Positions 5,505 through 60,273 of a DNA stretch of 64,000 nucleotides are shown here, piece after piece. This stretch comes from Candidatus Babelota bacterium (GTDB lineage: Bacteria; Babelota; Babeliae; Babelales; Vermiphilaceae), in NCBI GenBank assembly GCA_029262555.1, contig JAJCZE010000016.1:25129-89128 (forward strand). Direction: 5' to 3'. The notes under the pieces are model-generated. The model ran no database searches. It was given only the letters and a program-made list of their open reading frames with translations, and was not told the origin of the DNA. Each line of letters starts with the position of its first letter. Positions within the stretch are counted from its first letter, which is position 1. The position numbers were made by a program, and so were the translations under genes.

Positions 5505-5590
5505 GGAAAGTAGATACAAAAATAACAATACGTCTGCTGCTTTCTTTCGAACCTGACAGGGTATGTATCGCATTCCTTATCTACTTTCCC
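5505..5590 (-). ncRNA. ffs: Small (4.5S-type) signal recognition particle RNA
   Basis: The minus strand reads GGGAAAGTAGATA...CCTGTCAGGTTCGAAAGAAAGCAGCAG...TATCTACTTTCC followed by TTTTT. The central segment matches the conserved SRP domain IV (E. coli GGUCAGGUCCGGAAGGAAGCAGCC), here with a GAAA tetraloop. The ends form a 12-bp terminal stem. It sits directly upstream of dnaX, as in Bacillus. Boundaries are approximate. Confidence 0.7.
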
Positions 5591-5709
5591 AATTTTTATT
5601 TTCCGACTTGAATCCGCGTCGACCCAATGGTCCATCTACGCCTATAGCAGCTTCGGACAATCTTGCGCAAATAATGGCAAAGCCAGACGAAGCTCGCAAG
5701 AGCGAAGAC

Positions 5710-5801
5710 TGGTGGAGAGAGAGGGATTCGAACCCTCGATGCCCCTTTCGAGACATACATGATTTCCAATCATGCTCCTTCGGCCACTCAGACACCTCTC
5801 C
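5710..5801 (-). tRNA. tRNA-Ser (anticodon GGA), CCA encoded
   Basis: The minus strand reads GGAGAGGTGTCTGAGTGGCCGAAGGAGCATGATTGGAAATCATGTATGTCTCGAAAGGGGCATCGAGGGTTCGAATCCCTCTCTCTCCACCA. I can see the acceptor stem, the anticodon loop T-T-GGA-A-A, a long variable arm (class II tRNA) and the T-arm GAGGG/TTCGAAT/CCCTC. Confidence 0.9.
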
Positions 5802-9770: not shown

Positions 9771-10127
9771 GCAGGTATTTCCTTCCTGATAATAAAAAAA
9801 GAACAATAAGAAACTGTCTAACTTCCTTTATGTTAGCAGACAACTTAATAATTGTAAAAATAATCATTGTTGAAAATTCTCATTCGAAAAAAATCATAAT
9901 GCCTGGCAATATCACATATTTAGGCCTCTCCGCACAGCGTTACAATTTGAAACGATAAATCAGGCCTCATTTCGAGACTTCAAGCAGCCTCTCCTTATAA
10001 AAAGAACCCCCATTTCATTGACAAATCGCTCAATGCCGATACCCTGATAATGTGGATTATTCTCATACTATAGGGGGATAAGTCCCCACTCAAATTGCAA
10101 TAAGAAAAATTAAAAGGGAATAAAACG

Positions 10128-12575: not shown

Positions 12576-12600
12576 TAGTTATTCAGAACTATTGCAGATA

Positions 12601-12642
12601 ATACCGCCCTCTTTGTACTATAGAGGGCGGTATTATTATTTT
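12601..12642 (+). terminator. Rho-independent terminator after lon
   Basis: 12-bp perfect stem ATACCGCCCTCT / AGAGGGCGGTAT with a 9-nt loop, followed by TATTATTTT. Confidence 0.75.
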
Positions 12643-12656
12643 ATAAAGGAGTTTCT

Positions 12657-12827
12657 ATGAAATACGGACTATTCGCACTTCTTACCCTGGGCTTATTGCC
12701 AAGCTGCTCACACAATTCTCAGCCCGAAAGCACTCAATCAACCAAGAATATGGCTCGCGAGCAAGCCCAAGAGCAACAAGAAGAAATGGAAATGGATGAT
12801 ATGAGCATGAGTGAAGAGCAAATATAA
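12657..12827 (+). CDS. Small acidic putative lipoprotein (56 aa, below the ORF-track cutoff)
   Basis: AAGGAG RBS about 5 nt upstream of the ATG. The product is MKYGLFALLTLGLLPSCSHNSQ..., a signal peptide with a lipobox-like LPSC, followed by a Glu/Met-rich tail. Hairpin terminators flank the ORF on both sides. Confidence 0.6.
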   Translation: MKYGLFALLTLGLLPSCSHNSQPESTQSTKNMAREQAQEQQEEMEMDDMSMSEEQI

Positions 12828-12844
12828 AATATATTTCAATGTGA

Positions 12845-12881
12845 CAAAAAAGGGGTGCTCGCACAAAGCCCCCTTTTTTTT
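12845..12881 (+). terminator. Possible intrinsic (bidirectional-looking) terminator
   Basis: AAAAAAGGGG...(small internal TGC/GCA hairpin)...CCCCC followed by T8. Confidence 0.5.
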
Positions 12882-12982
12882 GGCAAAAAGGCCTGAATAA
12901 GCTCCCGACACAGTAAACCCTTCCAATCTCACCCCCTAAAATATTACTATATGTATATAAAATTATAGTTTAGGGGAACACT

Positions 12983-15091
12983 ATGTTTACTCGTATCATT
13001 TTTCGTAGATTATCGCGCAACATATCCTTTATGTTAATTGGATCGCTCGTATTAAGCACGGTTGGAGCTACATATCCGCAAGATCGTCTAAAAAAAGCAT
13101 TTGGATCAGCTAAAGGGGCTGTTTTTGGTGGGGCTTCAAAACTTGCCTCTACTGCAACCAACCGTATTAAAGGCGGTCTTTCTTCTGCGTTTAATAATGT
13201 AAAACAAATGGATCGTACTGTTGTGATTGATCGATTACAAAAACAAGTCGAAAGCCTTGGGCAAAAGATTGGGTATATGGGCAATTGTATGGCAAAGGGA
13301 ACATGCAGCCAGGCTGAGCGAACCGCTTTTATCGCTACATCTGTAACGGTACTCGCGCTTACTGTTGCAGTAGTAGGAGGAACGCTTTCCGTCGCGGCAA
13401 CGTCAAAAGAGGTTGAATCCGTTACAAGAGTAACTTCGCAAGAGGTACAAGGATGGGGCCCGCAACAAGTATTTCAACGTCTTGCAAACACAACCAATAA
13501 TTTCAAACGCTCTCTTTCTGAACTTAAACAAGGAATGCTCAAAAAAGAGCTTACGCGTGGCCAAAAGAAATTTTTATATGGAGCCGCAATCAGTATTGCA
13601 GCACTCGTAACGATTGCAGTTGGAGCTGTAGTGGCATCATATCTGTATGCGGAAAAAAAAGAATCTGAACAAGAAAAAAAAGACCCTCTCGGTGAGATTC
13701 AAAAATCCGAAGGAGCATTTGGTCAATTTTTCGATCGCATTGTTCGTGTAAAAAAAGAAGGATCAAATTTCTTGCAACAAGCAACACGAGAATTAAACGA
13801 AAAGCTCGAAGAAGCAAACCGTCTTGCAAGGCACGGCTTACAAGCTCAAGCCGACGTTGTCATGAAGCAAGCTAAAACTCAGGCGCAACTCATTGCGTCG
13901 CGCATTAAACAGGGAGGGCCTATACTCATAAAACAAGCTCTTTCGTCTATTTTTGGAATCAGTTATGAGGCACTCGCTTCAGCGCGACAGACATTTGATC
14001 AATCATTGGGTCAAATGACTCCTAAACTTGATAAAATGTGGAAAATCTCAACATGGAACGATATTCAGCGCATACAAACAAAATGGGAAACAATACAAAA
14101 CATGGGATATGCACTATGGGAAAATCTTTCCGGATTTTTATCGCAAATAACTTCTCGATCATGGAATAATATACCGAACTCTCTCTCTCTAGCCGAGGAT
14201 AGAAGAAAGGGAAATCAACGAAAATACAAACCAGAAGACGCAAAAGCATTTAAAGAGAAATATCCACTTGCTTATAAATATGATGCTCTCTTTCCGATAT
14301 ATCAAGATCTTCTTGCGCTTATTGGTAGAACCGATATTCCCGCAGTAGGTGCTGCACTACAAGGCGTACTTGACTCTCTTGGTACAACCTTACAATCTCT
14401 GGCACGTATGCATACTGATGCTGGTGTATGGGGAAAAATTCTCGTCACACAACAAATGATCAATCCATTGAATGCAATCGGTGACCACCTCGAACGCGCC
14501 GCCCTTTATCTGAAACAATTTACAGATGAAAATCCACTTGCCCAACTAGCACAACAACTGCCCGAAGGCCTTGATCGAGAAGCTCTCAAAAAATGGGTAA
14601 CGAGTGTAATTGAGCAACCTATTCCAGTATCGCAAGTAAGAACAATAACCCAGGCACTACTCCCTAAAATACAACAAACCCGTATCGCACTCTTTGAATC
14701 GAAAGACAAGGCGCAAGCGCTTTCAGACACTTTCAGTCAGCACAGCTCACACTTACTTGCTCTTATTGAACAATCAATACTTACACAGTTAAATCGAAAT
14801 CCGGTTGAAAATTATCTCAATGTTGCAAAGCGCGCAGTATTAAAAGAAGCAAAAATCAGCAAAGAGCTCCTTAATGATCTACTTTTTTATATTGCTGCTG
14901 TCGTCAATAATATTGAGAAGCTCATTTCTGCTGGTATCGCAACAATAGAAAACGTCAATGATGCACTTGGAAAAGAGTTTCTTACTGCATCTCATTTAGA
15001 AAAGCTAAAAGCAGCCGCAGCAGAGTTTGATGGCATCAGAAAAAGTCTTATCGAGTTACGGCAAGCTGCAAAAGAAAGCCTTCCACAATAG
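12983..15091 (+). CDS. Hypothetical membrane-associated, helix-rich protein (702 aa), paralogue of the next gene
   Basis: Long ORF with an N-terminal hydrophobic segment and two further predicted TM helices (FIATSVTVLALTVAVVGGTLSVAAT; LYGAAISIAALVTIAVGAVVASYLY). The rest is helix-rich. The C-terminal half aligns with the 15184 protein. Confidence 0.7.
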   Translation: MFTRIIFRRLSRNISFMLIGSLVLSTVGATYPQDRLKKAFGSAKGAVFGGASKLASTATNRIKGGLSSAFNNVKQMDRTVVIDRLQKQVESLGQKIGYMGNCMAKGTCSQAERTAFIATSVTVLALTVAVVGGTLSVAATSKEVESVTRVTSQEVQGWGPQQVFQRLANTTNNFKRSLSELKQGMLKKELTRGQKKFLYGAAISIAALVTIAVGAVVASYLYAEKKESEQEKKDPLGEIQKSEGAFGQFFDRIVRVKKEGSNFLQQATRELNEKLEEANRLARHGLQAQADVVMKQAKTQAQLIASRIKQGGPILIKQALSSIFGISYEALASARQTFDQSLGQMTPKLDKMWKISTWNDIQRIQTKWETIQNMGYALWENLSGFLSQITSRSWNNIPNSLSLAEDRRKGNQRKYKPEDAKAFKEKYPLAYKYDALFPIYQDLLALIGRTDIPAVGAALQGVLDSLGTTLQSLARMHTDAGVWGKILVTQQMINPLNAIGDHLERAALYLKQFTDENPLAQLAQQLPEGLDREALKKWVTSVIEQPIPVSQVRTITQALLPKIQQTRIALFESKDKAQALSDTFSQHSSHLLALIEQSILTQLNRNPVENYLNVAKRAVLKEAKISKELLNDLLFYIAAVVNNIEKLISAGIATIENVNDALGKEFLTASHLEKLKAAAAEFDGIRKSLIELRQAAKESLPQ

Positions 15092-15183: not shown

Positions 15184-16671
15184 ATGAAAAAACTCTTTTT
15201 AGCCGCACTATTCCTTTCGTCATCACTTTACGCTCACGATCTTCCTGATCGATTTTTGGGCCAATCAGCAACTGCAATCTGGAACACAATTCACGGAAAT
15301 ATTACCAGTTTTTTTGAACCGGAAGGGGAGGCTCATTCGCCCGCACCTCCCGAAACAATTGAACCATTGAGTGATCCATCACCATTTCAAGTGCTCTTTC
15401 GCCAAACTATCACCTTTACTAACAATGCATCCAATGCGCTCACAAATTTAGCTGCCCACGTGCTTGATGAAGCCAAAGAAAAACTCTACACCGTAGATCA
15501 AGCTGCCGATTATTTTATTCAAAAAATAGAAAATTCCGGATCGACGTTCATGAAAGTAATGCTACAAGAAACACTCGATTTTGATTTAGATCTTCTGATG
15601 CCATCATTTTCAAAAATAAAGCGCCACATACGCCACCTGAGACAAACAGTTCCACGCATGGAGCATGCAGCAGTAGTTGAACAAGTAAATCAACTCATTT
15701 CATACCTCGAGGACATACAAAAAACAGCCGTAACTTTACAAAAAGCAGGCATTGCTACCGTAAGTGCGAAATTAGCGTCCCACGCAATAACCTCAAAAGA
15801 GCACCCTCTCGTTACAGACTTTAATACGCTCTACAACGCATACCCTACAATAATTACCAAATTAAATGAGTTACACATTCCTGCGGCCGGCCATATCGCA
15901 CACCAAGCGTTCAACAGCACTTCCGAGCTCGTTGAGCAAATTGTACTTATGCATGATTCGGCAGGGAAAATTGGATCGGTATTAATTGATGATGCACTCG
16001 TGCATCCACTTGATAGCTTAAAAAACCAAGTGCGTAAATTGGGCAATGCAGCAGAATTTGTAACATCAACGCACCCTCTGATTGTAGTAGCACCCCCAAC
16101 CACCACAGATGCATTACTAGAAATACTCAAAACCTTTATCTGGCGCGATGGCTTTACGCTTAAAGAAACTGCTCAAGAAAAAATTGCTGAGCTCAATTCA
16201 CTCATCCCACCCATTAAAGCGCAAGTAAAACTGCTTAAAAAGCGCCTTCATAACTTTAAATTGGTTATGACAGAATTCCAACCACGATTACACGCTCAAT
16301 TCGTTGCACGATTAAAAGAATCACCGTTAGTCACTATTCCTATCGCACCAAAAATATTATTTGACCTACTAGAACAAGAAATTGAAATAGTAAAAAGTAA
16401 GCTGATAGTAATGATGCGTGCATCTCTTGCGCTTACGTATCGCGTCTCTCGAGTAATTGGTATCGGATCATCACTCCTTGAGTGTATGAATCATTGCATG
16501 GGTGCAACCGATGATCAACCATTTATTCACCATGATATTATTCGCGGAGTCGGCTTTATATCACAAGACACAGTAGGATTTAGCAACATTATCATTAATG
16601 TTACTGAAGCGCTAAAAGAATATAATCCGCTCCCATTTCGCAATGAATTAGAGGAAATAGAGCGTATTTAA
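15184..16671 (+). CDS. Hypothetical secreted protein (495 aa), paralogue of the previous gene
   Basis: AAGGA RBS and a signal-like N-terminus (MKKLFLAALFLSSSLYA). IPAAGHIAHQAFNSTSELVEQIVLMHDSAGKIGSVLIDDALVHPLDSL aligns with IPAVGAALQGVLDSLGTTLQSLARMHTDAGVWGKILVTQQMINPLNAI in the upstream protein. Confidence 0.7.
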   Translation: MKKLFLAALFLSSSLYAHDLPDRFLGQSATAIWNTIHGNITSFFEPEGEAHSPAPPETIEPLSDPSPFQVLFRQTITFTNNASNALTNLAAHVLDEAKEKLYTVDQAADYFIQKIENSGSTFMKVMLQETLDFDLDLLMPSFSKIKRHIRHLRQTVPRMEHAAVVEQVNQLISYLEDIQKTAVTLQKAGIATVSAKLASHAITSKEHPLVTDFNTLYNAYPTIITKLNELHIPAAGHIAHQAFNSTSELVEQIVLMHDSAGKIGSVLIDDALVHPLDSLKNQVRKLGNAAEFVTSTHPLIVVAPPTTTDALLEILKTFIWRDGFTLKETAQEKIAELNSLIPPIKAQVKLLKKRLHNFKLVMTEFQPRLHAQFVARLKESPLVTIPIAPKILFDLLEQEIEIVKSKLIVMMRASLALTYRVSRVIGIGSSLLECMNHCMGATDDQPFIHHDIIRGVGFISQDTVGFSNIIINVTEALKEYNPLPFRNELEEIERI

Positions 16672-23262: not shown

Positions 23263-23601
23263 ATGAAAAAAACAATCCTCGCTCTTTGTGCTTTCATTGT
23301 AATGGGATATGTACACGCAGAAAGATCATCAACACCCGATGGCCTACCTGAACTTTTTATTACATTCATGACTCACGATCTCGAAATAGAAGATCATTTA
23401 AATCGCAGTGATTTCATTCAAGGATTTAACCCCTCTAATCGTACTCGCGATATGACTTTAAAAGCATTATCTATCGCAAAGCGAACAGCTGAAGGTGTCG
23501 GTATTGGCGTACTGGCATACGGCACTCTACTTATACGACTTATGCCTGAAGATGGCTTTCAACTTGATGGCGAATGCCCTGGAAATATGACTCTTCCTTA
23601 A
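23263..23601 (+). CDS. Hypothetical small secreted protein
   Basis: RBS-like AAAGGA and signal-like MKKTILALCAFIVMGYVHA. No family recognised. Confidence 0.55.
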   Translation: MKKTILALCAFIVMGYVHAERSSTPDGLPELFITFMTHDLEIEDHLNRSDFIQGFNPSNRTRDMTLKALSIAKRTAEGVGIGVLAYGTLLIRLMPEDGFQLDGECPGNMTLP

Positions 23602-23614: not shown

Positions 23615-23950
23615 ATGAATAAAAGTATGTTACTCGCATTTGCACTCTGCTCATTTTCATTCATTACGCAGGCAAGCCCCTATAATAAAGAAGATCAAAT
23701 GAAAGAAGTGGGAAAATATATTGCCCAGAGTGCACGCTGGATAGCTCAAAATCCAGGGCGGTCAGCAGCAGAAGCGGGGCCTTATGTAGTTGCTCTTGCT
23801 TGCTATTGCTATCCCGATCAGGCTGGCACGGTAGCTTCATTTATCGCTGAAGAAGTTGCAACAGGAAAAGCTTGTTTTGATGCTCTCAGAATCATAGCGC
23901 CCGCATTTGAACGTTTTGCAGACCATCTTGCTCGGCGCAGGATGAATTAA
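23615..23950 (+). CDS. Hypothetical small secreted protein
   Basis: It follows the previous ORF after 13 nt. Signal-like MNKSMLLAFALCSFSFITQA. No family recognised. Confidence 0.55.
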   Translation: MNKSMLLAFALCSFSFITQASPYNKEDQMKEVGKYIAQSARWIAQNPGRSAAEAGPYVVALACYCYPDQAGTVASFIAEEVATGKACFDALRIIAPAFERFADHLARRRMN

Positions 23951-24023: not shown

Positions 24024-25889
24024 ATGTCTATCTTAATGCTCAAAAACATTTCTCTTCGCTTTGGTGAACGAACCATTTTTGATGATATTTCTGTTGATTT
24101 TCAAGCTGATCAAAAAGTCGGCATTGTTGGCCGTAACGGCGCAGGTAAATCAACCCTTTTAAAAATCATTTCTGGGATGGACAAACCTGATAGCGGCGTT
24201 GTCTCAAAAGAGCGTGGAAAAACGATTGCGTATATGGCGCAAGAAATGGTCTTGGAATCGAGCAAAACTATTTATGATGAAGCATTCACCGTATTTGAAA
24301 TTTATACGGCACTCGAATTAGAGCAATCTGAGATTGAAAAACAGTTAGATACCGCTCCTTCAAACGCGGAGCAGCTTCTTGAGCGCTACATGCAGATTCA
24401 AGAAAAACTTGCACAATTTAATCGCATTCAAGCCGAAAAACAAACTGAAGAGATTTTAATTGGTCTTGGGTTTAAAAAAGAGCAATTCACTCAACCGGTT
24501 CAAGAATTGAGTGTTGGGTGGAAAATGAGGCTTGTACTTGCAAAACTCTTATTGCAAAATGCTGACTTTTATCTTTTTGACGAGCCTACTAACCACTTAG
24601 ATATCACCGCAAAAGAATGGTTTTTTGAATTTTTACGAAATGCTTCATTTGGCTATTTACTTGTTACGCACGATCGCTACTTTTTACAAAAAGCGTGTGA
24701 TATTATTTTTGAACTTTCTCACGGGAAAGGCACGCTCTATCACGGCAGCTACAATTACTACATTGAGCAAAAAGAAGAACGCAATCGCGTACAGCAATCA
24801 GCATACGAGCGCCAACAGCGTGAAATTGCAAAAAAGAAAGAAACAATCGATCGATTCCGAGCAAGTGCAAGTAAAGCTAAAATGGCCCAAAGTATGATCA
24901 AGCAACTTGATCGTATTGAGCTGATTGAAGTTGAGCCACCCGAGCCAAGCATTCATATTTCATTTCCAGAGCTCAGCCGTCCGGGCAAAGTAGTCCTTTC
25001 CGTAGATGGCGTATCGCATGCATTTGATGATAAAAAACTATTTAATAATGCAACATGCGAAATTGGCCGCGGCCAAAAGGTCGCACTTTTAGCTCCGAAC
25101 GGGACTGGTAAAACAACGCTCTTTAATCTTATTTCTGGAAAACTGCCCCTTCAAAATGGAACTGTTGAATTTGGGCACAACGTACAGCATGCGCTTTTTG
25201 AGCAAGATCAAACCCGTGCACTCGATGCAAATAGTACCATTTTTGACGAAGTTCAAAATAATACACGCAATGTCTCTGATGGCATGATTCGAAGCTTCTT
25301 AGGATCGTTTCTCTTTTCTGGAAAAGATGTTGAGAAAAAAACAAAAGTATTAAGTGGTGGCGAAAAAAACCGCGTAGCAATGGTAAAAGCATTACTCCAA
25401 AATGCTAACTTTTTACTTCTCGATGAGCCTACCAACCACCTTGATCTTTTTGCAAAGTCGGTACTGCTTCAAGCGCTCAAAAAATATCCTGGTACAATTT
25501 TATTCGTTTCTCACGATCATGACTTTATTCAAGAATTGGCTACCGATATTTTAGAGCTTTCTCCAAATGGCCTCTATCATTATCCAGGAAAATACGAAGA
25601 TTTCTTGCAGGATACCAAACAGCATGAATCTACTGCGCAAGAAGCTCCTGCAAAAGAATCTCAACCCAAAGAAAAACCTGCCGAGCTTTCTACACAAAAA
25701 CGACGTGATATCAGAAAAACTGAGCAAAAAATTGCCAAACTTGAAAAGCAATTAGAAAAGCTCAATCTAGAAATCAGCTCCCATACGTATGGCACCCCGG
25801 AGTTTACCGAGCTCTCTCAAAAAATCGATTCCGCTCAAAAGCAACTCATTGAGGCTGAAGCCAAATGGGAAAAGCTGCAAGGCAATTAA
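24024..25889 (+). CDS. ABC-F family ATPase (tandem ABC domains, no TM domain)
   Basis: Two ABC cassettes: Walker A GRNGAGKST and APNGTGKTT, signatures LSVGWKMR and LSGGEKNR, Walker B LFDEPTNHLD and LLDEPTNHLD. There is an inter-domain linker and a C-terminal coiled-coil tail. Confidence 0.9.
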   Translation: MSILMLKNISLRFGERTIFDDISVDFQADQKVGIVGRNGAGKSTLLKIISGMDKPDSGVVSKERGKTIAYMAQEMVLESSKTIYDEAFTVFEIYTALELEQSEIEKQLDTAPSNAEQLLERYMQIQEKLAQFNRIQAEKQTEEILIGLGFKKEQFTQPVQELSVGWKMRLVLAKLLLQNADFYLFDEPTNHLDITAKEWFFEFLRNASFGYLLVTHDRYFLQKACDIIFELSHGKGTLYHGSYNYYIEQKEERNRVQQSAYERQQREIAKKKETIDRFRASASKAKMAQSMIKQLDRIELIEVEPPEPSIHISFPELSRPGKVVLSVDGVSHAFDDKKLFNNATCEIGRGQKVALLAPNGTGKTTLFNLISGKLPLQNGTVEFGHNVQHALFEQDQTRALDANSTIFDEVQNNTRNVSDGMIRSFLGSFLFSGKDVEKKTKVLSGGEKNRVAMVKALLQNANFLLLDEPTNHLDLFAKSVLLQALKKYPGTILFVSHDHDFIQELATDILELSPNGLYHYPGKYEDFLQDTKQHESTAQEAPAKESQPKEKPAELSTQKRRDIRKTEQKIAKLEKQLEKLNLEISSHTYGTPEFTELSQKIDSAQKQLIEAEAKWEKLQGN

Positions 25890-26007
25890 GCGCCTCTCTT
25901 TAAGCACCATAAATCCTTTTCATTTCATATAGAGCAAAACTATATATCCACCCCCACGCCCAATCATTCCAAACTGAATTAAGTTACAATAAAAGCTTAT
26001 ATTTCGC

Positions 26008-26035
26008 TTGCTTTTTAAAAAAATAAGAGGATAAT
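26008..26035 (+). promoter_or_regulatory. Candidate sigma70-type promoter for the AAA+ cassette
   Basis: TTGCTT, 16 nt, GATAAT, about 50 nt upstream of the ATG at 26088. This is a sequence match only. Confidence 0.35.
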
Positions 26036-26087
26036 CCAAAAGTAGAAGTAAGTATTTCTTTTACATTTTTTCCTAAAGGGTTTTATC

Positions 26088-27302
26088 ATGATGCTCAAGC
26101 AGGTATCATGGAGACGTAGTAATCGAGCCCTGTTTCTTTTCTCTCTTCTATTAGTTCCAACCTATTTATTTTCTGGTGATCCCGATGCCTCTGGATGCGC
26201 TACAAAAGCCGCAGAGCAAGCAGCAGACGCAACTGCAAAAGCCGAAGCAGCAGCCAGATCTAAAGCCGGTGCCGGCGCTGGTGTTGGTGGCGAACCTGCG
26301 CCACCACGTAGAGGTATTTCTGAAGCAGACTTTTTTCCCTGTTCAGAAAAAGAAATCGCCATTCAAGAGCGAATTTTAAGAACTCAGGGAGAAGAAGTTA
26401 ATAGCCTTCATAAAACATTGGCTAGGCAAAATCGTGTAAATAGAGTTGTCCTCTTTCATGGCGAACCTGGGGTAGGAAAATCAGATGGCGCAATAGGGCT
26501 TTGTAGGCGTATGAATCTTCGCTTAATGCGTATAGATCGTCATCAAATTAGCTCAGGCTCCTATGGTACATCTGGCAAAAAGCTTGTCAAAAGATTGAAC
26601 AGCGCCGTAGCTGAGTCAGATTGTTGTGGAATATTTATTGATGAATGCGATAAGATTTTTGATCATCCAGAACAGCAAAATAGAGACACCGCACAAACCG
26701 CAAATGATTTTTGGGTATGGACTGACGACTTTAATAAGCTACCGTCAAATAAGCGCATAGTTATTCTTGCCGCTAATGATATTACACATTTCCCGCAACC
26801 ACTTTTATCACGACTATCAGGTATGATATATGAATTCCATGGGCCAACAAGCCCAAAGGATAAAGCTGATGCGCTTGCTTCTTACTTTCCTATGTATCCA
26901 GATTTACCTCTCGCCTATATACAAAAAGCACAATGGCTTTTTACGAAGTATCCTAAACTTACGGGGCGAGATTTTCAGCTTATTTACCAAAAAGCCTTAG
27001 ACTATGCTGGCGATGATGATGTAACCATGGATCATGCTCAACGAGCAATCGAAAAAATTCATCAAGAGCGGCTGGATAGCAAGTATTATGATGAAGACGA
27101 AACGCCTCAAGATCAAGCAGAGCGCCATTTCAATTGGAATAGTAGATTTCAGCTTGCAAATAGCGCACTAAATGCGGGCTGGACCATATTTAAAATAGGA
27201 AAAGCAATACATAAGTGGCATCAGGGAGACACTGATGGGGCCTCTCAAGACGCACAAGACGTTGCAGGGGCTGCTGTTGATGCCTTACGAGGTGAACAAT
27301 GA
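26088..27302 (+). CDS. Membrane-anchored classical AAA+ ATPase (single AAA module)
   Basis: N-terminal hydrophobic anchor (ALFLFSLLLVPTYLF) and an Ala/Gly-rich linker. The AAA module has Walker A GEPGVGKSDG, Walker B GIFIDECDKIF, sensor-1-like ILAANDITHFPQPLLSRL and a helical lid. The stop overlaps the next start (ATGA). Confidence 0.85.
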   Translation: MMLKQVSWRRSNRALFLFSLLLVPTYLFSGDPDASGCATKAAEQAADATAKAEAAARSKAGAGAGVGGEPAPPRRGISEADFFPCSEKEIAIQERILRTQGEEVNSLHKTLARQNRVNRVVLFHGEPGVGKSDGAIGLCRRMNLRLMRIDRHQISSGSYGTSGKKLVKRLNSAVAESDCCGIFIDECDKIFDHPEQQNRDTAQTANDFWVWTDDFNKLPSNKRIVILAANDITHFPQPLLSRLSGMIYEFHGPTSPKDKADALASYFPMYPDLPLAYIQKAQWLFTKYPKLTGRDFQLIYQKALDYAGDDDVTMDHAQRAIEKIHQERLDSKYYDEDETPQDQAERHFNWNSRFQLANSALNAGWTIFKIGKAIHKWHQGDTDGASQDAQDVAGAAVDALRGEQ

Positions 27303-29494
27303 TGAAACGCATACTACTGACGCTACTCACTTTCCCCTTTTTACGTGGGTCAGAAATAACAAAAAAAATCCGTGTCGATGCCAAGCAAGAACTCGTAGAC
27401 TATTTTTACTTAAATATGGGACCTTTGTTTGATTCGTCCACTCAAATGTTTCGTATAAAAAATATATTGAATCAACGATCAACTAGCACCGAGAATATAC
27501 ACTTTGTTGGTATAGCGGATGTTAAAATGTGTTTACGGCCTGCTATACGCGCATACAATAACAAACTCGAAGAAGCCGTTAGATCATTTAACTTAACAGC
27601 CTTAAAAGCTTCAAGGCGATTTTTAACAGACAAATTAAGCGAACGAACTCTTTCCGACAATGAGCGCATTATATATTCCAAACAAATGCAATTACTCATA
27701 TATCATTATAATTCACAAAACATGCAAAATTTTATAGCCATTGTAGAGTCGGACTCACATGAAGAAGCTGCGGTATCGCTCTCTAGCTTACAATCTCAAT
27801 ATCATATGGGCGGATTAAATCAAGATGCCCTAAAAATTGCAGAAGAAGCTTTTCTTTCTCGGTCAGAAGCAGAAGGACTGCGGCAGTTTCACTATCCACT
27901 AGGTACAAATCTAGCTCCTTGGGTAAAATACTACCAGGATTGTGATAAAGAACGATTAGAAGGAGATTGGCTTTCTCTTAATGCAAAAGAAGGCAAATTG
28001 GAATCGCGCTTAAAGGATCCAGATCTCTCCCCCGAGGTCCGATTACATTTGCAACGGGAAAAAGACATTGTAAGTAGCATGCTTCGTCACCACTCAACGA
28101 CACCACTTATGGCAGTACGTCAAGGAAATCCTCGCTCAGCTTTGATTGCATGGAGAAATTTAGAGCAGTGGTGTAAAGATGGGCAAATTGATAGTAAAAC
28201 GTTTCAAGCGGCAAAAACTTTTTATTTACAGCGAAAAGATGTGCATGAATTGGAAGATTCTGCTGCAATAAGTGTTGAAAAACCTACTGAAACAGTTAGC
28301 TCTACAGTCGATGCAAAAATAGACTCTTCGTCCCAACTTGCAAGCGAATTTCTTAATACCGAGTTTGGTATCACACCTGATCGATATTTTAATTTCTCTG
28401 GCACGGCTGAACAGCTTAAAAATGATGCCGTTATCAAGCAAGCTCTTAATAACAATGTCAGTTATTTGCATCAGGCAAAAACGATTGAAGAGCAAGGAAT
28501 GTGGGCTGTAGCGATTCAAGCTAATGTGGAAGCATTTAAGCAAAATGAATCGGGAGCGCTCCAAGGGGCTACGTTTAGTGCGCAATCATTAGATCAGTCT
28601 GAATTGGTCGAAATTGCGTCTCAAGTGGTATCTCGGATAGGCGATAATGCGCAACACCCAATCAGCTTCATTCAAGAAAAAGTTGCCGAAGTTGCCAACA
28701 TTGGATGTGCAATAGCGGATCTTACTATTGGCCAAGCATTCCGAACTCCTGAACAGCAAGTACAGCGCATTCAAGAATTTGCTGCAACAATAGATTCTTA
28801 TGCCGGCTTGCCGTGGGCAGAAAAAAAGACAATCTTTGTAAATGCAATTGCGGATATTATTACTGTAACTGGATTTGCGACTGCAGGGAAAATGGTTACA
28901 AGCCTTGCTGCAAATATTCCCCAATATCTTCCCGCAATTACTGCCGCATTTTCGGAAGGAACCAGTGAACTATTAAGCGCATTAAGCGAGACGCTTTATG
29001 GTGCAAGCTTTAGTGGTGGTGGCGCAGCCGCTGCGCAAACATCTGCATCGCAGGAAGTGATTGCAAACTCAATTGCGCAAGTCGCGAGTGGATTTGCAGT
29101 GGCTATAGCTGCTGATGGATCAGCCACAGTAAGCATGCCCGATCCCTCTTCTGTATTACGGCAGGATAGTGAGAAAACAACTGGCGGTAGCGCTCCTGAT
29201 GTAGTAAAATCTAAGCCAGCGAAAACGGTTGATGATTTGATAAGTGAAGCAACGTTTAGAAAGCAAAAAAGAAGGGCTAAAATCTATGATAAATGTGGAA
29301 CATATCAAGACATGTTAAAAGATTTTGAAAATATGAATCTTACAGAAGTTAGAGATATTTCTTCGGGCAAACTTGGTAAACTTCCTGATGGAAAAGCTGT
29401 AACAGCCCGAATGAAAAGCTCTGACGGGGCTCCCACATTGGAAATTTTTAATCCTATCAAAAACAAAAGTGTTAAATTTAGATATGGAGATTGA
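27299..29494 (+). CDS. Large hypothetical protein (731 aa) with a short C-terminal toxin-like module
   Basis: Uninterrupted ORF coupled at both ends by 4-nt overlaps. The body is long and helix-rich, followed by a Gly/Ala/Ser-rich linker (GASFSGGGAAAAQTSAS...). The terminal module of about 90 aa reads KIYDKCGTYQDMLKDF...GKLGKLPDGKAVTARMKSSDGAPTLEIFNPIKNKSVKFRYGD. Its size, position and pattern are typical of the C-terminal domains of polymorphic toxins (inference). Confidence 0.7.
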   Translation: MMKRILLTLLTFPFLRGSEITKKIRVDAKQELVDYFYLNMGPLFDSSTQMFRIKNILNQRSTSTENIHFVGIADVKMCLRPAIRAYNNKLEEAVRSFNLTALKASRRFLTDKLSERTLSDNERIIYSKQMQLLIYHYNSQNMQNFIAIVESDSHEEAAVSLSSLQSQYHMGGLNQDALKIAEEAFLSRSEAEGLRQFHYPLGTNLAPWVKYYQDCDKERLEGDWLSLNAKEGKLESRLKDPDLSPEVRLHLQREKDIVSSMLRHHSTTPLMAVRQGNPRSALIAWRNLEQWCKDGQIDSKTFQAAKTFYLQRKDVHELEDSAAISVEKPTETVSSTVDAKIDSSSQLASEFLNTEFGITPDRYFNFSGTAEQLKNDAVIKQALNNNVSYLHQAKTIEEQGMWAVAIQANVEAFKQNESGALQGATFSAQSLDQSELVEIASQVVSRIGDNAQHPISFIQEKVAEVANIGCAIADLTIGQAFRTPEQQVQRIQEFAATIDSYAGLPWAEKKTIFVNAIADIITVTGFATAGKMVTSLAANIPQYLPAITAAFSEGTSELLSALSETLYGASFSGGGAAAAQTSASQEVIANSIAQVASGFAVAIAADGSATVSMPDPSSVLRQDSEKTTGGSAPDVVKSKPAKTVDDLISEATFRKQKRRAKIYDKCGTYQDMLKDFENMNLTEVRDISSGKLGKLPDGKAVTARMKSSDGAPTLEIFNPIKNKSVKFRYGD

Positions 29495-29496
29495 GT

Positions 29497-29907
29497 ATGC
29501 CAGAAAACTGGATGACATGGGAAGCTGCAAAAGGCCTAAATGCTAAATATTACATCGATACTATTTTAGATTCAGATGATGATGGGTTTATTATTGAGTT
29601 ATCTGAACAAAATAATAACAAAAAGAAGGTGCGAATTACATTTAAAGATTGGGTATGGTCTTATAAATACGTCCAAGAGATCTTTGCTACTAATAGACTT
29701 GATGAGGTAAGAGGCAAACATGAAAAAGATTTTTTCAAAGGACGCACTTTTTTTAAAATTTCTGAATCAAACTATTTACGCCAGTTATCTCAAGAATCCT
29801 CTGACATTTTGAATTATTATGGAGGAGCAATTCATTTTTGTTTTGTATCTGCTGAATCTATATTAGATGTAATTGCTAATTATGAGCCCACTATTGAATT
29901 TATTTAA
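29497..29907 (+). CDS. Immunity-like small cytoplasmic protein, paralogue A
   Basis: GGAGA RBS 7 nt upstream of the ATG at 29497, which lies 2 nt after the stop of the 731-aa gene. It is about 136 aa with no signal peptide, and is paralogous to the next ORF. Confidence 0.7.
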   Translation: MPENWMTWEAAKGLNAKYYIDTILDSDDDGFIIELSEQNNNKKKVRITFKDWVWSYKYVQEIFATNRLDEVRGKHEKDFFKGRTFFKISESNYLRQLSQESSDILNYYGGAIHFCFVSAESILDVIANYEPTIEFI

Positions 29908-29917
29908 GAAAAACAAT

Positions 29918-30349
29918 ATGACGAATAAAATGGAAAAATGGAAAAAGTGGGTGCCGACTAAAAACATTCCGGGTACATTATATTATGAAGAAATTGTCAG
30001 CAATAAAAAAGGTTTAACGTTATTATTTTCAGATGAATCAAATACCAAAACAATAAAAATTACGTTTAACGGACTAGTTTACTCATATAGGTTTACAGAA
30101 GAAGGATGCTTATTAAAAACATTGGACTATCTAGTAGATACACATAAGAAAAAAGACTTTCATGGTTGGTGTATGTTTGAAGTACAAAATTCAAACTACT
30201 TAACCTGGTTTAAAGAAGAATCCTATGATGCGTATGATACAGAAACATTTGCCCATTATGCCATTTATACCGAAGATGGATTAATCGAAGTGCTTTCTCC
30301 CTATCCTCCCGAAATTGAAGTCAAAGACCTTGTTAAGAGCTCAAAATGA
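29918..30349 (+). CDS. Immunity-like small cytoplasmic protein, paralogue B
   Basis: Three blocks align between the two paralogues: KTIKITFNGLVYSYRFTEE with KKVRITFKDWVWSYKYVQE, FEVQNSNYLTWFKEES with FKISESNYLRQLSQES, and HYAIYTEDGLIEVLSPYPPEIEV with HFCFVSAESILDVIANYEPTIEFI. The start is uncertain (29918 or 29930). The stop overlaps the next start. Confidence 0.7.
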   Translation: MTNKMEKWKKWVPTKNIPGTLYYEEIVSNKKGLTLLFSDESNTKTIKITFNGLVYSYRFTEEGCLLKTLDYLVDTHKKKDFHGWCMFEVQNSNYLTWFKEESYDAYDTETFAHYAIYTEDGLIEVLSPYPPEIEVKDLVKSSK

Positions 30350-30933
30350 AACTCCATCTTTTTTTATTGCCGCTATTACTACTTACTCAAACTACATTCC
30401 CCCATCAGCCCGCCAAAAAAGAGCTGAAAATTTACCGCGCCCCTATTGATTATAGCGCTGCTTTATGTTTGATCTTTGGAACAATCTCTTCAATGGGATC
30501 TGCTGCATTTTTTACACTATCCAGATATGAGCCCAGGCCTCCAAGCCACAAATCTTCTTTTTTGTTCGGTGTATTGCCGGCAGGTATCGCTGTCGGATTA
30601 TTTGCAATAGGATGGAAAGCGCAAGAACAATGGAATGTGCTCATGCATAAACCCATTCTCATTTTTGATGAAGAAGGGTTTACCTACGAACACTCAATGG
30701 GAGCCTTTAAAGATCGTAAGGATGTTCGCTATCTATGGAAAAATGTAATATCTCATTGGGTATCAAAAGTTATAAATGAATATGGCATCACCGAAAAAGA
30801 ACATTGGAATTATCACGTAAAAGGCATTGAGCGCGTAGTGAAAATTAATGCTTTAGAGCTTAATATTCCTAAAAATTTACGTGCACAAGTTCACTCTCTC
30901 AGGCAAGGCCAGATTCGAGCATTATCAATATAA
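30346..30933 (+). CDS. Two-TM membrane protein with a soluble C-terminal (possibly PH-like) domain
   Basis: Signal-like N-terminus, then two hydrophobic helices (ALCLIFGTISSMGSAAFFTL; FLFGVLPAGIAVGLFAIGW). The next segment (PILIFDEEGFTYEH...VRYLWKNVISHW) is reminiscent of bacterial PH-like membrane proteins, but that domain call is weak. It is the last gene of the coupled cassette. Confidence 0.65.
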   Translation: MKLHLFLLPLLLLTQTTFPHQPAKKELKIYRAPIDYSAALCLIFGTISSMGSAAFFTLSRYEPRPPSHKSSFLFGVLPAGIAVGLFAIGWKAQEQWNVLMHKPILIFDEEGFTYEHSMGAFKDRKDVRYLWKNVISHWVSKVINEYGITEKEHWNYHVKGIERVVKINALELNIPKNLRAQVHSLRQGQIRALSI

Positions 30934-39931: not shown

Positions 39932-40081
39932 ACCGTTTAAAACCTTTCAATAGAATGGAATATGCCTGAATTTTATGGATAAAACCATACTCTTATCGTA
40001 GAGAATCTGGGGTAAAATGTCAAAAAAGAGTGCTGAAAGACCTCTCTTTCTTTGCTCAAACACCCAAAGAGGCCCCCACAG

Positions 40082-40133
40082 GCCCTATCCCTTATCCTCA
40101 AAGGTCTCTTGGCAACCCAAACAGCGAGCCGCA
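40082..40133. repeat. Direct repeat copy A, a non-functional duplicate of the dksA 3' end
   Basis: This 52-bp segment is identical, apart from one synonymous-position mismatch, to 42949-43000. On the minus strand it reads AARCLGCQETFEDKG-stop, but an in-frame TAG lies just upstream and there is no start codon. Confidence 0.9.
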
Positions 40134-40275
40134 CCTGCCTATTCATCTCTCAACAGATAAATATCTAATATGTATATCTAGCAAAAGAGAGAACTATTGC
40201 CTTTTTGAAAATAAAAATGGCACATTGAGAATAATAAAAAAAAGAGGGCCTTGTTTTAGCAAAGGAAAAATCAAA

Positions 40276-42936
40276 ATGAATAAGATCTCAATGCTGCTTA
40301 TAGTAACTATTTTTACTTGTAGCTTACATAGTCAAGCCGCTCAGGCACCTAAAACAAACGCCAGCTTCATCAATGCTGTAAAAATCCTCCGCGGAGAGCG
40401 ATCTGTACTAAAAAGCAAGGCAATCCTTGCTGGTGCAGGCGCTGCAGCTGCTACCGGATTAGCTGTAACCTCACCTCAAATTATAGATCCTGAAATGGAA
40501 ATCCAGCTTTATCGCGAAGCTCGTGGTGGAATTCCCGAGGGCCAAGAATGGAGCGAAGACTATAAAACTGAACATATGCGCAATATCGGAGAAAAAGCTA
40601 TCATCGTTGCGGCTGGATCAGCAGCTATCGGAGCTGGGGTGGGTGCTCTTTATAGTAAGGGAAAAAAGCACTATATCCTTTCAAAGCTGAATTCGCTACT
40701 TCGAGCGTACACCGATTATTCCTCATTTCAAAGCCTCACATTTGCCCAAAGTGCTCTATTATATGCTGCCTATATGCAAGATCTCGATCAGCTCAAGCAA
40801 CTTGCACAAAAAAATTCTGATTTTCTCAATGAAAAAGGAATATTTAACGTCATCACCTCACTGTTTTATAATAAGCATGCAACTCATGATTTAATGGCCG
40901 CGCTCAAAGAGCATTTAAAAATAGATACGATACAAATTCACTATTTGCCAGACATTTTAGCGCGCCAGTCTTTACGGCAAAAAGCTCGAGAAGCAAGGGA
41001 CACAGGAATTGCAACAATAAAATCTGGGGGCGCTGCAATTGGATCTAGTATCCGAACAGGAAGAGATGCTATTGGATCTAGAGTCTCACGCGCAACAAAA
41101 GCAGCAACCTCTCCCTTTAGGCTCAACTATATGTCTGAGAAAGCCATTGCCCCCTATATGAATGACCCTTCGCAATATGATGCTTTTTTGCAAAGCTACA
41201 ACCCCAACATTTTGGTCGGGACATTTGGAGGATATTTAACTGGCGCAAATGCCACACCCATACTCGGATATGCATTATGGAATGGAAAAGGTGAATTTGC
41301 TAGCTTTTTAATCGAACATGGCGCAAAAACAAGTGATAATCGCATGCAAAATCGCGCACTGTATAATAAAAAGGGATATAATAGCTACTTAGATTTGGCA
41401 ATCGACAAAAAACAATTAAATGTTGTAAAAAAGCTGATAAAACTTGGATTGAAAATAGGAGACAAAGAGCTTCGCCGTGCCTTTACAACTCCTGATCAAT
41501 CCATTCAATCCTATATTGAAAGCATAATCTCAAATCCAGAACACTTACAGCCTGGCGTTGCCCCTCTTAATATCGCCGTCTCAATCGGCAATAAAGACCT
41601 TGTAAAAAGATTATTCAATACAAAAAATATCAACAATGCTGATTTAAATGGCAACACCCCATTACATATAGCAGTAAATCAATCTAATACAGATTTAATA
41701 AAATTATTGCTAGAAAGTGACGCATCTGTTGAAGCTAAAAACAAGAAAGGAAACACTCCTTTACACCTCGCAAAAAAGGCTGCGATTGCAAACTTATTGA
41801 TTCAGCAAGGAGCCTCAACAAATAGTAAAAACAATGAAGGCAAAATCCCACTCTTTATCGCCCTAGAAGGAAATGATCCGTTATTAATTAAAGCCCTTGC
41901 GCAAGGAGTAGATCTTGCTATCGCAAATCAAGCTGGTAATAGCTTGCTTCACCAAGCAATTAGACACAATAAAAATGATTTTGCGAAAATGATTTTGCAA
42001 AAAAATCCTTCTTTAATTGATCAAATAAATCAACAAAAAGAAACACCTCTTGCCCTGGCTGCCAAACTTGAAAATAATCAAATGATTAATTTTTTGATTG
42101 CCAACAATGCAAATATAGAGTCTCGCAATAGCGATAATGCTACACCACTGATAATTGCCATTTCGAACAACAATATAGACGGTGCTAAACAGCTACTATC
42201 TTATAATGCAGACCCAAACGCTACAGATAAGCATAGTGATAGCTCTTTGCATAAAGCTGTCGGCTTTAAGCGGATCACAATTATCGATGATTTACTTAAA
42301 AACGGGGCTTCGATAGACAAGCAAGACCTTCTAGGAAATTATCCGCTTCATATTGCACTTACTAAAGACCTTCCGGGTCATATCATCATAAAGCTCATTT
42401 CTCCTACTAATATCAATGCATCTAACAACGCTGGGAACACCCCGCTGAGCCTCACAAAAAACAAACAATCAATGCTCGCATTACTTCGAGCAGGAGCTGA
42501 TCCTAATATTGCGCTTAACAATAACGATACGGCTCTTCAAATTGCTGCAAAAAATCTCGACTCTGATAGCGTGTCAACCCTTTTGCAGCATGGAGCTCGA
42601 ACTAACTTTATAAACAATCAAGGAAACTTACCTCTTCACACGGCGCTACTTGCCATGCAAACTAATTTCTTCACACCAAATGCGACCAAAACAATTGGCA
42701 TTATTCAAAGCTTAATAAGCCCACAAATAATAAATAGCCCCAATAACGATGGGCGGACCCCTATAAGCATTGCCGCAAGTATACCTAATGCTCAACTCAG
42801 CAAACAAATAATTCAATTATTATATCAACATGGAGCCCGGAACGATATTCCCGACTTAAAAGGAAAATTCCCTCATGAATACTCGCTCTATACCGACGTT
42901 CGTAAATTGCTCGGCTATATACCGCCAACACACTAA
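40276..42936 (+). CDS. Ankyrin-repeat protein with signal peptide and N-terminal hydrophobic segments
   Basis: I prefer the start at MNKISMLLIVTIFTCSLHSQA (AAAGGA RBS) over the GTG at 40030, because the GTG extension reads through the dksA remnant. The C-terminal two-thirds holds many 33-aa ANK units (GNTPLHIAVNQSNTDLIKLLLESDASVEAKNKK...). Confidence 0.9.
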   Translation: MNKISMLLIVTIFTCSLHSQAAQAPKTNASFINAVKILRGERSVLKSKAILAGAGAAAATGLAVTSPQIIDPEMEIQLYREARGGIPEGQEWSEDYKTEHMRNIGEKAIIVAAGSAAIGAGVGALYSKGKKHYILSKLNSLLRAYTDYSSFQSLTFAQSALLYAAYMQDLDQLKQLAQKNSDFLNEKGIFNVITSLFYNKHATHDLMAALKEHLKIDTIQIHYLPDILARQSLRQKAREARDTGIATIKSGGAAIGSSIRTGRDAIGSRVSRATKAATSPFRLNYMSEKAIAPYMNDPSQYDAFLQSYNPNILVGTFGGYLTGANATPILGYALWNGKGEFASFLIEHGAKTSDNRMQNRALYNKKGYNSYLDLAIDKKQLNVVKKLIKLGLKIGDKELRRAFTTPDQSIQSYIESIISNPEHLQPGVAPLNIAVSIGNKDLVKRLFNTKNINNADLNGNTPLHIAVNQSNTDLIKLLLESDASVEAKNKKGNTPLHLAKKAAIANLLIQQGASTNSKNNEGKIPLFIALEGNDPLLIKALAQGVDLAIANQAGNSLLHQAIRHNKNDFAKMILQKNPSLIDQINQQKETPLALAAKLENNQMINFLIANNANIESRNSDNATPLIIAISNNNIDGAKQLLSYNADPNATDKHSDSSLHKAVGFKRITIIDDLLKNGASIDKQDLLGNYPLHIALTKDLPGHIIIKLISPTNINASNNAGNTPLSLTKNKQSMLALLRAGADPNIALNNNDTALQIAAKNLDSDSVSTLLQHGARTNFINNQGNLPLHTALLAMQTNFFTPNATKTIGIIQSLISPQIINSPNNDGRTPISIAASIPNAQLSKQIIQLLYQHGARNDIPDLKGKFPHEYSLYTDVRKLLGYIPPTH

Positions 42937-60263: not shown

Positions 60264-60273
60264 TGAGACTTGA

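Follow-up and report, generated by a model that had tools for sequence, protein, structure and literature searches.

A probable Sec-dependent polymorphic toxin-immunity cassette next to a Cdc48/NVL-like AAA+ ATPase gene in a probable Dependentiae genome

The subject of this work is a cassette of five genes located in a 64,000-nucleotide stretch of DNA from a Candidatus Babelota bacterium (assembly GCA_029262555.1, contig JAJCZE010000016.1, positions 25,129 to 89,128 of the forward strand); this stretch, at its full length, is hereafter called the window. The cassette encodes an AAA+ ATPase, a large protein with a toxin-like C-terminus, two small proteins and a membrane protein with two hydrophobic segments (the 2-TM protein, for two transmembrane segments). 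An earlier reading of the sequence, referred to below as the original prediction, had seen in it a possible toxin-immunity or effector module. We compared the cassette with related loci, designated by numbers preceded by L, and its toxin with the homologues P0002 to P0005.

Organization of the cassette

The five co-directional open reading frames (ORFs) of the cassette and the features on which the comparison relies are the following, all on the + strand, with protein lengths in amino acids (aa):

25901..26182, +, upstream intergenic region and first ~95 nt (leader) of the AAA+ gene, 81% identical by blastn to positions 4838-5111 of the syntenic locus L001
26088..27302, +, Cdc48/NVL-like classical-clade AAA+ ATPase, 404 aa (PF00004 at aa 121-245, E=2.9e-18)
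27299..29494, +, putative mosaic polymorphic toxin, 731 aa (the homologues P0002-P0005 each match parts of it only)
29153..29254, +, pre-toxin junction, from SVLRQD..K.TGG to KTVDDLISEAT, a recombination boundary after which the sequences diverge
29207..29491, +, predicted C-terminal toxin domain (CT), aa 637-731 (CT profile matches, conserved residues intact)
29497..29907, +, putative cognate immunity protein, 136 aa, no signal peptide (2 nt after the toxin stop, own ribosome-binding site)
29918..30349, +, putative orphan immunity protein, 143 aa from the called start (30% identity with the product of the preceding gene)
30346..30933, +, conserved membrane protein (2-TM protein), 195 aa (ATGA overlap with the previous stop, leader-like N-terminus)

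Inspection of the ORFs and of their junctions bears out the tight joining of the five genes that had been described in the original prediction. Stop and start codons overlap as ATGA at 27299-27302 and at 30346-30349. The toxin gene ends with TGA at 29492-29494, the ATG of the next gene follows 2 nt further on at 29497, and its ribosome-binding site GGAGA lies at 29486-29490, inside the end of the toxin gene.

The C-terminal domain is shared with toxins of other delivery systems

When a profile of the CT of the 731-aa protein was searched, 1,726 cluster representatives matched at E<=1e-3, of which 905 reached E<=1e-10. The best 150 matches range in length from 91 to 3279 aa, and almost all of them carry the domain at their very C-terminal end. 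Its carriers have very diverse architectures: TPS, ESPR and haemagglutinin repeats (CdiA, of the contact-dependent inhibition (CDI) systems), haemagglutinin repeats with PT-VENN, SpvB with TcdB and RHS, RHS/YD-shell, PT-HINT and DUF4347. We also observed the domain on an orphan MafB-CT cassette in a maf island of Neisseria gonorrhoeae, on a CdiA-like protein encoded by a Duffyella plasmid and on a Firmicute protein from Faecalispora. The same ~95-aa CT therefore ends CdiA, Rhs, TcB/TcC-like, PT-HINT and MafB-CT proteins, which agrees with the suggestion of the original prediction that the terminal module is that of a polymorphic toxin.

Across 160 members of the family the conserved positions are G, F, G.L.DG, R, S, PTLE and K.RY. 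The window domain, which belongs to a subgroup with an altered N-terminal PGR.TKG...Q motif, keeps all the family residues (D697, G698, R704, S707, P712-T713-L714-E715, K726, R728 and Y729). No Pfam or NCBIfam model corresponds to this CT and it has no sequence match in the PDB. Profile hits to designed TPR/PPR repeats in the PDB were discarded as low-complexity artefacts.

AlphaFold2 gave a confident model of the domain (pLDDT 93.5) composed of a helix, a hairpin, a helix and five strands. The weak Foldseek hits of this model, to the teneurin C-terminal region, to Pol-beta-type nucleotidyltransferases and to glyoxalase-type proteins, do not converge on one fold and were set aside. The conserved residues are Arg, Lys, Tyr, Glu and Asp, with neither His nor Cys. 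Given these residue types and the habits of such toxins, our preferred guess, with a chance of about one half, is that the CT would be a metal-independent nuclease, probably an RNase, for which D697, R704, T713, E715, K726, R728 and Y729 would be the candidate residues.

The domain family Ntox7 was described with a predicted BECR fold and a 'DGx + xhR, N motif' (PMC3482391). The window CT has the motif DG(R/K)xVxxR and the carriers of its family (MafB, type V, TcdB/TcaC, HINT, FilH, RHS) agree with the Ntox7 table of the same work, the two being compared by description. The CT family may therefore be the Ntox7 of Zhang et al. 2012, going by the published description alone.

An orphan CT of this family, of 134 aa, is also present in L024 with a 135-aa downstream gene, in a housekeeping context (3132-3954, 12431-13536); the same contig carries a GspD-type secretin.

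The two small proteins have relatives encoded after this domain in other bacteria

As noted in the original prediction, the two small proteins are paralogues; they share 30% identity over 132 aa (E=6e-19). Five homologues of the second one begin with ME.W, which suggests that its translation probably starts at the ATG at 29930 and yields a product of 139 aa. The nearest relatives of the first small protein follow the most similar CTs (44% identity in L020 and 40% in L008), and the second is 47-53% identical to immunity genes that stand after long-loop CT variants in L001, L006 and L008.

The genes that follow the same CT in Duffyella (hhalign 98.6%, E=1.3e-15) and in N. gonorrhoeae (hhalign 95%, E=4e-8) are homologous to this small-protein family. 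The family thus follows the same CT across phyla, and the reading of the small proteins as immunity proteins is reinforced. The gonococcal match lies in the record NZ_CP119142.1 (L013), in a maf island where a full MafB (3215-4744) precedes orphan CT/immunity cassettes. This record and NZ_CP119140.1, of ~2.17 Mb, are filed as plasmids and are evidently chromosomes.

By a word-indexed search the small-protein family was found in 12 clusters, none of them named and several on toxin-locus contigs. One homologue, annotated as 'hypothetical protein', is encoded in E. coli strain 7/2 (L023 3863-4240, 125 aa), where hrpA and ydcF flank a small island of hypothetical genes. Matches to it were obtained in 587 of the 5,426 complete E. 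coli genomes, and it has the appearance of an orphan immunity gene. The small proteins have no real match in Pfam, NCBIfam or PADLOC, nor has the immunity profile any by sequence in the PDB. A structural model of the immunity protein (pLDDT 81.7) submitted to Foldseek against the PDB gave TM-scores below 0.25, and no neighbour. The published description of Imm8 mentions 'WEa at C-terminus' (PMC3482391); since the small proteins have no C-terminal WE-aromatic motif, they are not Imm8 by that feature.

A different type of small gene accompanies a further AAA+ paralogue (L006 14967-16824 and L004 4568-4795): two small Cys-rich proteins resembling zinc ribbons are encoded after it. They share homology with the product of the gene next to the toxin P0005, on its downstream side, and it is possible that they are immunity proteins retained without a toxin.

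The toxin domain and the first small gene were exchanged as one block

When the window was compared with the syntenic locus L001 by blastn, the similarity ran through the toxin body, stopped at 29254 just after KTVDDLISEAT and resumed at 30078, inside the second small gene. We conclude from this gap that the CT and the small gene next to it were replaced together, as a single module. L001 has only one immunity gene, to which the second small gene of the window corresponds (47% identity), and judging from this comparison it is a putative orphan immunity gene that has been retained here while its CT was displaced. The original prediction had proposed to look for a swap of the C-terminal module together with the downstream small genes; such a swap is seen against L001 at the DNA level, with the second gene left as an orphan.

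In the Dependentiae-type loci this type of CT is always followed by a member of the small-protein family: in the window, L001, L002, the orphan of L003, L006, twice in L008, and in L020. Other CTs have other followers. The P0004-type CT precedes a protein of 215/216 aa in L003 and L017, 73% identical between the two loci, and behind each of three further CT types stand small genes of other kinds. The immunity gene therefore lies directly downstream of the toxin and changes with its CT. Full orphan CT and immunity cassettes are present in L003, L008 and L017, and the window has an orphan immunity gene only.

The co-variation of the two partners was measured on 10 pairs, consisting of 8 non-redundant Dependentiae pairs with those of Duffyella and Neisseria; L022, identical to L001 in both its CT and its immunity protein, was left out of these statistics. 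CT identity correlated with immunity identity with a Mantel r=0.39, a value reached in 232 of 20,000 permutations. With the 8 Dependentiae pairs, r was 0.34 (874 of 20,000 permutations).

A mosaic body ends at a sharp junction

The 731-aa protein is a mosaic. Residues 194-350 (window 27878-28348) are common to P0005 with 60% identity, residues 343-640 are common to P0002-P0004 with 55-66% identity, and for residues 1-193 no relatives were found. The conserved helical, Ala/Gly-rich body (aa 343-636, window 28325-29206) stands directly before the CT. The protein has no match in Pfam, NCBIfam or PADLOC, nor in the PDB by sequence. A metagenome scan with the toxin body as query gave no matches, and exact look-ups of the window proteins and of the protein P0027 led to no contig.

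Of 8 toxins or orphan fragments with the window type of body, 7 have the junction motif, and a variant, VLRSQ, occurs in the two L004 toxins. The 70 aa that precede the CT are 58-97% identical among relatives and the CT itself 41-59%; at the DNA level L001, L008 and L017 cease to resemble the window at 29235-29254. We thus find a conserved body, a sharp junction and a variable CT, with at least five CT types on related bodies.

By a heuristic based on hydrophobicity and charge, a leader-like N-terminus is present in all the full-length toxins examined (7/7). That of P0003 (L002 903-3341) is closely similar to the leader of the AAA+ family (MVHKQVLWRGSNKACFLSSLLF...), and no AAA+ gene stands upstream of it. 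This likeness suggests that recombination carried an AAA+ leader onto the toxin. A second cassette type is found in L020 (5534-9993), where an AAA+ gene overlaps by ATGA the gene of a 646-aa leader-bearing protein, which is followed by two small genes and a 2-TM gene. This 646-aa protein has an unrelated body and a different C-terminal module.

At the P0005 locus, a DUF2247 label was reproduced (E=1e-26). A DUF4258-like identity of the P0005 tip was not confirmed by Pfam, and a CdiI-like label on the neighbouring gene was not reproduced.

The AAA+ ATPase has a probable Sec-type leader

In the product of the first gene PF00004 scores above its gathering score, and the motifs are intact: Walker A is GEPGVGKS, Walker B is IFIDECD, the sensor-1 Asn is in AAND and a single Arg is present in LLSRL. 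The assignment to the classical clade made in the original prediction therefore stands. The best sequence matches in the PDB are to NVL (1.9e-12), then to Cdc48, Rix7, spastin and Msp1, and FtsH is not among the 60 PDB matches listed. The protein consists of a Sec-type leader (aa 1-30), a low-complexity Ala/Gly linker, the AAA core (aa 121-245, window 26448-26822) and, at its C-terminus, a tail of amphipathic character. Beyond the leader, DNA similarity to L001 stops until 28331, and the bodies of the homologues are very divergent, with 15-25% identity to the window copy.

The original prediction had this ATPase anchored in the membrane. The leader of the window protein has an n-region with a charge of +4 and an h-region of ~15 aa followed by acidic residues. 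In all nine full-length homologues the n-region carries +1 to +4 and the hydrophobic stretch measures 12-15 aa; the 15 residues that follow it have a net charge of -3 to +1, negative in 8 of the 9. According to the positive-inside rule, this distribution of charges and a hydrophobic stretch of leader length point to a Sec-type leader with its N-terminus inside and the AAA domain outside the bacterial cytoplasm. On this reading the window protein does not have an anchor of the Msp1/ATAD1 type.

In addition, three of the nine homologues end in a CaaX box, in L001 (CVVM), L003 (CSIV) and L020 (CVLM), and a fourth ends in a hydrophobic segment resembling a tail anchor. These four proteins, encoded at L001 5017-6861, L003 247-1764, and L020 11245-12747 and 12766-13917, all have Sec-type leaders. 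As a control we looked for a strict CaaX pattern, which excludes CSIV, in the 121 ORFs of at least 150 aa from the window and the loci: it was found in 2 of them, both AAA+ homologues, and in none of the 119 others. CaaX boxes are used only by eukaryotic prenyltransferases, and the Legionella effectors AnkB and PelC/PelE are prenylated by the host (PMC2916131, PMC13081727). With the N-in leader and the CaaX boxes of the three homologues, the membrane-anchored topology is probably wrong and the ATPase is more likely exported. From these sequence features we infer that the AAA+ family is probably exported and may act on host membranes, with less confidence for the window copy.

Two other locations have to be weighed. 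The ATPase might be anchored in the inner membrane with its catalytic domain in the cytoplasm, where it would unfold the toxin or strip it of its immunity protein and hand it over to export. Such a role would suit the conserved gene order and translational coupling as well as the AAA+ core motifs, which look active, and unfoldases load toxins elsewhere, Pvc15 being an example (PMC11495950). We hold it to be quite improbable, because the charges around the hydrophobic segment predict an N-in, C-out orientation, the ~12-15 aa of the h-region have the length of a leader, a near-identical leader is found on the toxin P0003, and the CaaX boxes of three homologues and the tail-anchor-like end of one would be useless in the bacterial cytoplasm.

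The ATPase might instead be periplasmic, or face the periplasm, and drive the toxin over the outer membrane with ATP derived from the host. The topology of the leader fits and the pairing with the toxin is tight; the window also encodes a TLC ATP/ADP translocase (8403-9806), which implies ATP outside the inner membrane during infection, and in L024 a GspD secretin is encoded on the same contig as an orphan CT of the family. Against this, the CaaX and tail-anchor-like ends of the homologues point to the eukaryotic cytosol, the cassette encodes no outer-membrane partner, and to our knowledge there is no periplasmic AAA+ motor. A periplasmic location thus seems very unlikely.

The AAA+ gene is conserved upstream of the toxin

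An AAA+ gene stands directly upstream of a leader-bearing toxin in six loci, as expected from the pairing suggested in the original prediction: in the window, L001, L003, L006 and L020 (twice), and as a remnant in L004. The two genes overlap by 4 nt in the window and by ATGA in one case in L020, and are separated by 26 nt in L001, 24 nt in L003 and 19 nt in L006; the gap is 141 nt for the L004 remnant, the others being 18-26 nt or an ATGA overlap. The exceptions are L008, where the AAA+ gene follows the 2-TM gene, and L002, where no AAA+ gene stands upstream.

These exceptions would be explained if the cassette were not one machine, the toxin-immunity pair being self-sufficient and the AAA+ and 2-TM genes, coding for secreted effectors or membrane proteins of no common function, being unrelated occupants of a recombination-prone island between the ABC-F and DivIC genes. 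The content of this island does vary, L001 having an ankyrin gene there and L008 TPR genes, and AAA+ bodies have been replaced independently of toxin bodies. However, the adjacency of the AAA+ gene and a leader-bearing toxin in six loci extends to unrelated toxin bodies, such as the 646-aa protein of L020, and is hard to explain without co-function. We therefore judge such a chance association to be unlikely.

The 2-TM protein and the neighbourhood of the cassette

The last protein of the cassette has two hydrophobic segments and a C-terminal soluble domain of ~100 aa, which is predicted to be located outside the cytoplasm. Its homologues, 44-64% identical, close the 3' end of the cassettes in L001, L008/L009, L017 and L022 and are encoded nearby in L006 and L020. 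In scans of Pfam, NCBIfam and PADLOC its only family hits are recurrent ones to the NCBIfam model STM3941_fam, below threshold (E=0.12, 0.0047 and 0.042), and the protein has no sequence match in the PDB.

The cassette is flanked by an ABC-F gene (24024-25889) on one side and by convergent DivIC and RapZ genes, then a Ctp protease gene, on the other; superoxide dismutase and lysyl-tRNA synthetase genes are also neighbours. Syntenic metagenome loci have the same flanks, ~83% identical at the DNA level, and differ in what lies between them. With the flanks kept and the content between them variable, the site behaves as a variable island in a housekeeping backbone. GC skew is positive over 26001-30000 (+0.01, +0.10) and negative on both flanks, the GC content being unchanged at ~0.40. 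Upstream of the ABC-F gene, two small leader-bearing proteins (23263-23601 and 23615-23950) have counterparts at the same place in L001, with 27-29% identity.

The 10 large window proteins that were scanned correspond to Lon, ankyrin proteins, GyrB, GlmS and TLC or have no assignment. Among them and the neighbouring ORFs, we saw no type V or type VI secretion genes and no contractile-injection genes, in agreement with the original prediction, which had seen no delivery genes nearby. The TLC translocase gene is on the - strand, and four large ankyrin-repeat proteins are encoded in the window, among them those at 40030-42936 and 56914-61665; such a combination is typical of an energy-parasitic intracellular bacterium. 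The sole named relative of the toxin is from a Candidatus Dependentiae metagenome-assembled genome, the only such genome found in a genome scan. The obligate intracellular lifestyle guessed at in the original prediction fits with this relative and with the TLC and ankyrin proteins.

Elsewhere in the window, Pfam gave no match at E<=1e-5 for the large ORFs 12983-15091 (702 aa) and 15184-16671 (495 aa). As to RNA genes, the window was found to hold only those of a small signal recognition particle RNA (5498-5593, - strand) and of tRNA-Ser (GGA) (5710-5801, - strand).

Discussion

We propose, with reasonable though not full confidence, that the cassette is a Sec-dependent polymorphic toxin-immunity system, Maf-like but made from different parts, in a probable Dependentiae genome. 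As far as comparison of sequences can tell, the proposal is supported by a modular toxin, a translationally linked putative cognate immunity gene, an apparent orphan left by a swap, and conserved AAA+ and 2-TM neighbours.

According to this proposal, the toxin would pass through Sec by means of its N-terminal leader and would be released through a type II system or in vesicles, which has been put forward for other Dependentiae effectors too. Its body, with hydrophobic helices rich in Ala and Gly, might help the CT to cross the target membrane, and the CT would then act as a nuclease. In the producer and its kin, the 136-aa cytoplasmic immunity protein would bind and block the CT. An earlier CT and immunity module would have been replaced by recombination at the junction, leaving the orphan paralogue. 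The exported AAA+ ATPase, for its part, could be an unfoldase or segregase on a host membrane, acting either on the toxin, which it would pull across or off the membrane, or on host targets.

We regard as unlikely, if worth stating, the fuller version of this last step, in which the ATPase is a Sec-exported Cdc48-like motor, anchored through prenylation by the host or through a hydrophobic tail, that pulls the toxin across or out of a host-derived membrane, or else a periplasmic motor running on host ATP. If true, it would be a retrotranslocation engine supplied by the pathogen, and so a new delivery route for polymorphic toxins; in the periplasmic variant it would be the first ATP-driven periplasmic AAA+.

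Several observations weigh against the proposed system or against parts of it. The CT model has no significant neighbour by Foldseek against the PDB and BFVD (best E=0.016): the BECR/RNase-like fold that the original prediction had suggested looking for is not confirmed, and the toxic activity is one that we infer. The leader of the window toxin is the weakest of the set, with a Kyte-Doolittle value of 1.8 and an Arg at -3 of the likeliest cleavage site. In an initial set of 7 pairs the co-variation of CT and immunity protein did not reach significance (r=0.22, 868 of 5040 permutations), and with 10 it is modest. As for the ATPase, the window copy has no CaaX box and ends in ...ALRGEQ, and it has only its leader in common with that of L001 (the first 32 aa are 90.6% identical, the rest cannot be aligned by BLASTP), so that the features of the homologues may not hold for it. 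An exported AAA+ also needs ATP outside the bacterial cytoplasm, which it would meet in no other place than the cytosol of the host or a periplasm that the host supplies. Finally, a 2-TM homologue stands away from toxins in L018, which is also what unrelated occupants of one island would lead to.

The target of the toxin is a separate question from its architecture. The toxin could be aimed at the eukaryotic host, the small proteins merely shielding the producer from toxin that has not been exported. The organism is an obligate intracellular parasite with many leader-bearing effectors; Dependentiae effectors commonly have signal peptides, which in Chromulinavorax are found on 44% of proteins, including most ankyrin proteins (PMC6561590). 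The eukaryotic lipidation signals in the family of the AAA+ partner and the presence of the same CT on TcB/TcC-like proteins go in the same direction. On the other hand, it is competition among related bacteria that has arrays of orphan CTs and immunity genes, like a retained orphan immunity gene, as its signature; toxins that intracellular bacteria direct at their hosts usually have no immunity genes (Zhang et al. 2012, PMC3482391); and the same CT/immunity pair occurs in CDI and Maf loci, systems that are used between bacteria. We consider a toxin directed at the host somewhat doubtful: the orphan arrays favour bacterial competition, while the lifestyle and the CaaX-tagged partner favour a connection with the host.

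Among known systems, the Maf system of Neisseria has a Sec-leader toxin, to which the window toxin with its leader-like N-terminus would correspond, and it likewise has a lineage-restricted body, a swappable CT, a downstream immunity gene, orphan cassettes and an upstream accessory gene (PMC4287609, PMC7738311, PMC3482391), and one gonococcal orphan MafB-CT and the gene next to it belong to the CT and immunity families of the window. However, Pfam finds no DUF1020/MafB-N in the window toxin, the upstream gene encodes an AAA+ ATPase instead of the MafA lipoprotein, the cassette is closed by a 2-TM protein and the bacterium that carries it is an obligate intracellular parasite. With neither MafB-N nor MafA, the cassette is Maf-like and not a member of the Maf family.

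With the CdiA-CT/CdiI pairs of CDI and with the Rhs/TcB-TcC toxins the cassette shares the CT and a sharp junction (VENN in CdiA, VLRQD...KTVDDL in the window), and the immunity family is common to the window and the gene downstream of the Duffyella CdiA-like gene. In contrast, no TPS domain, haemagglutinin repeats, CdiB, Rhs/YD shell or PAAR/VgrG was found in the window toxin or in the neighbours examined. The APD1/APD2 toxins of Amoebophilus and the N-domain toxins of Microscilla have a lineage-specific domain after a signal peptide and polymorphic C-termini, a general principle (PMC3482391) that the window toxin would follow, again in a symbiont or parasite of amoebae, but they carry a lipobox and usually lack immunity genes, whereas the window toxin has a putative immunity gene and an AAA+ partner, and related loci have orphan cassettes.

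The ATPase has the classical-clade AAA core of Cdc48/p97, NVL/Rix7 and Msp1/ATAD1 and, like Msp1, combines a single AAA domain with a membrane-targeting element. Unlike in Msp1/ATAD1, this N-terminal element is a cleavable-looking leader of opposite orientation, and the homologues appear to be targeted by their C-termini, through CaaX boxes or a hydrophobic tail; unlike these three groups, the window ATPase is a bacterial product whose gene adjoins that of a toxin. Legionella AnkB and PelC/PelE are bacterial proteins with CaaX boxes, as are three of the AAA+ homologues, but they are delivered by a type IV system, none is an AAA+ protein, and the window copy has no box. Pvc15/Afp15 are AAA+ proteins encoded with toxins and needed for loading them, but they have a double AAA domain, belong to operons for sheath, tube and baseplate, of which no genes were seen among the window proteins scanned, and recognise non-hydrophobic N-terminal signals (PMC11495950).

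A full-text search of the literature found no paper that combines Dependentiae with a polymorphic toxin. As far as we could find, three things are unrecorded: a polymorphic toxin with immunity and orphan genes in an obligate intracellular lineage, a large unnamed family pair of CT and immunity proteins, and the conserved coupling of such a toxin to a leader-bearing, sometimes CaaX-tagged, Cdc48-like AAA+ ATPase. The CT and immunity pair is uncatalogued: neither Pfam nor NCBIfam has a model for it and no structure of it has been solved, and it occurs in the maf islands of Neisseria, the CDI loci of enterobacteria, and Firmicutes. The pairing with an AAA+ ATPase may represent a new accessory role, either in the delivery of toxins or in the manipulation of the host, and that it forms a new delivery module is our hypothesis. 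Obligate intracellular bacteria usually lack the immunity side of polymorphic toxins (Zhang et al., PMC3482391); if a genome of Dependentiae type does hold a full set of toxin, immunity and orphan genes, competition among these protist parasites, within their hosts or in the surroundings, would be implied.

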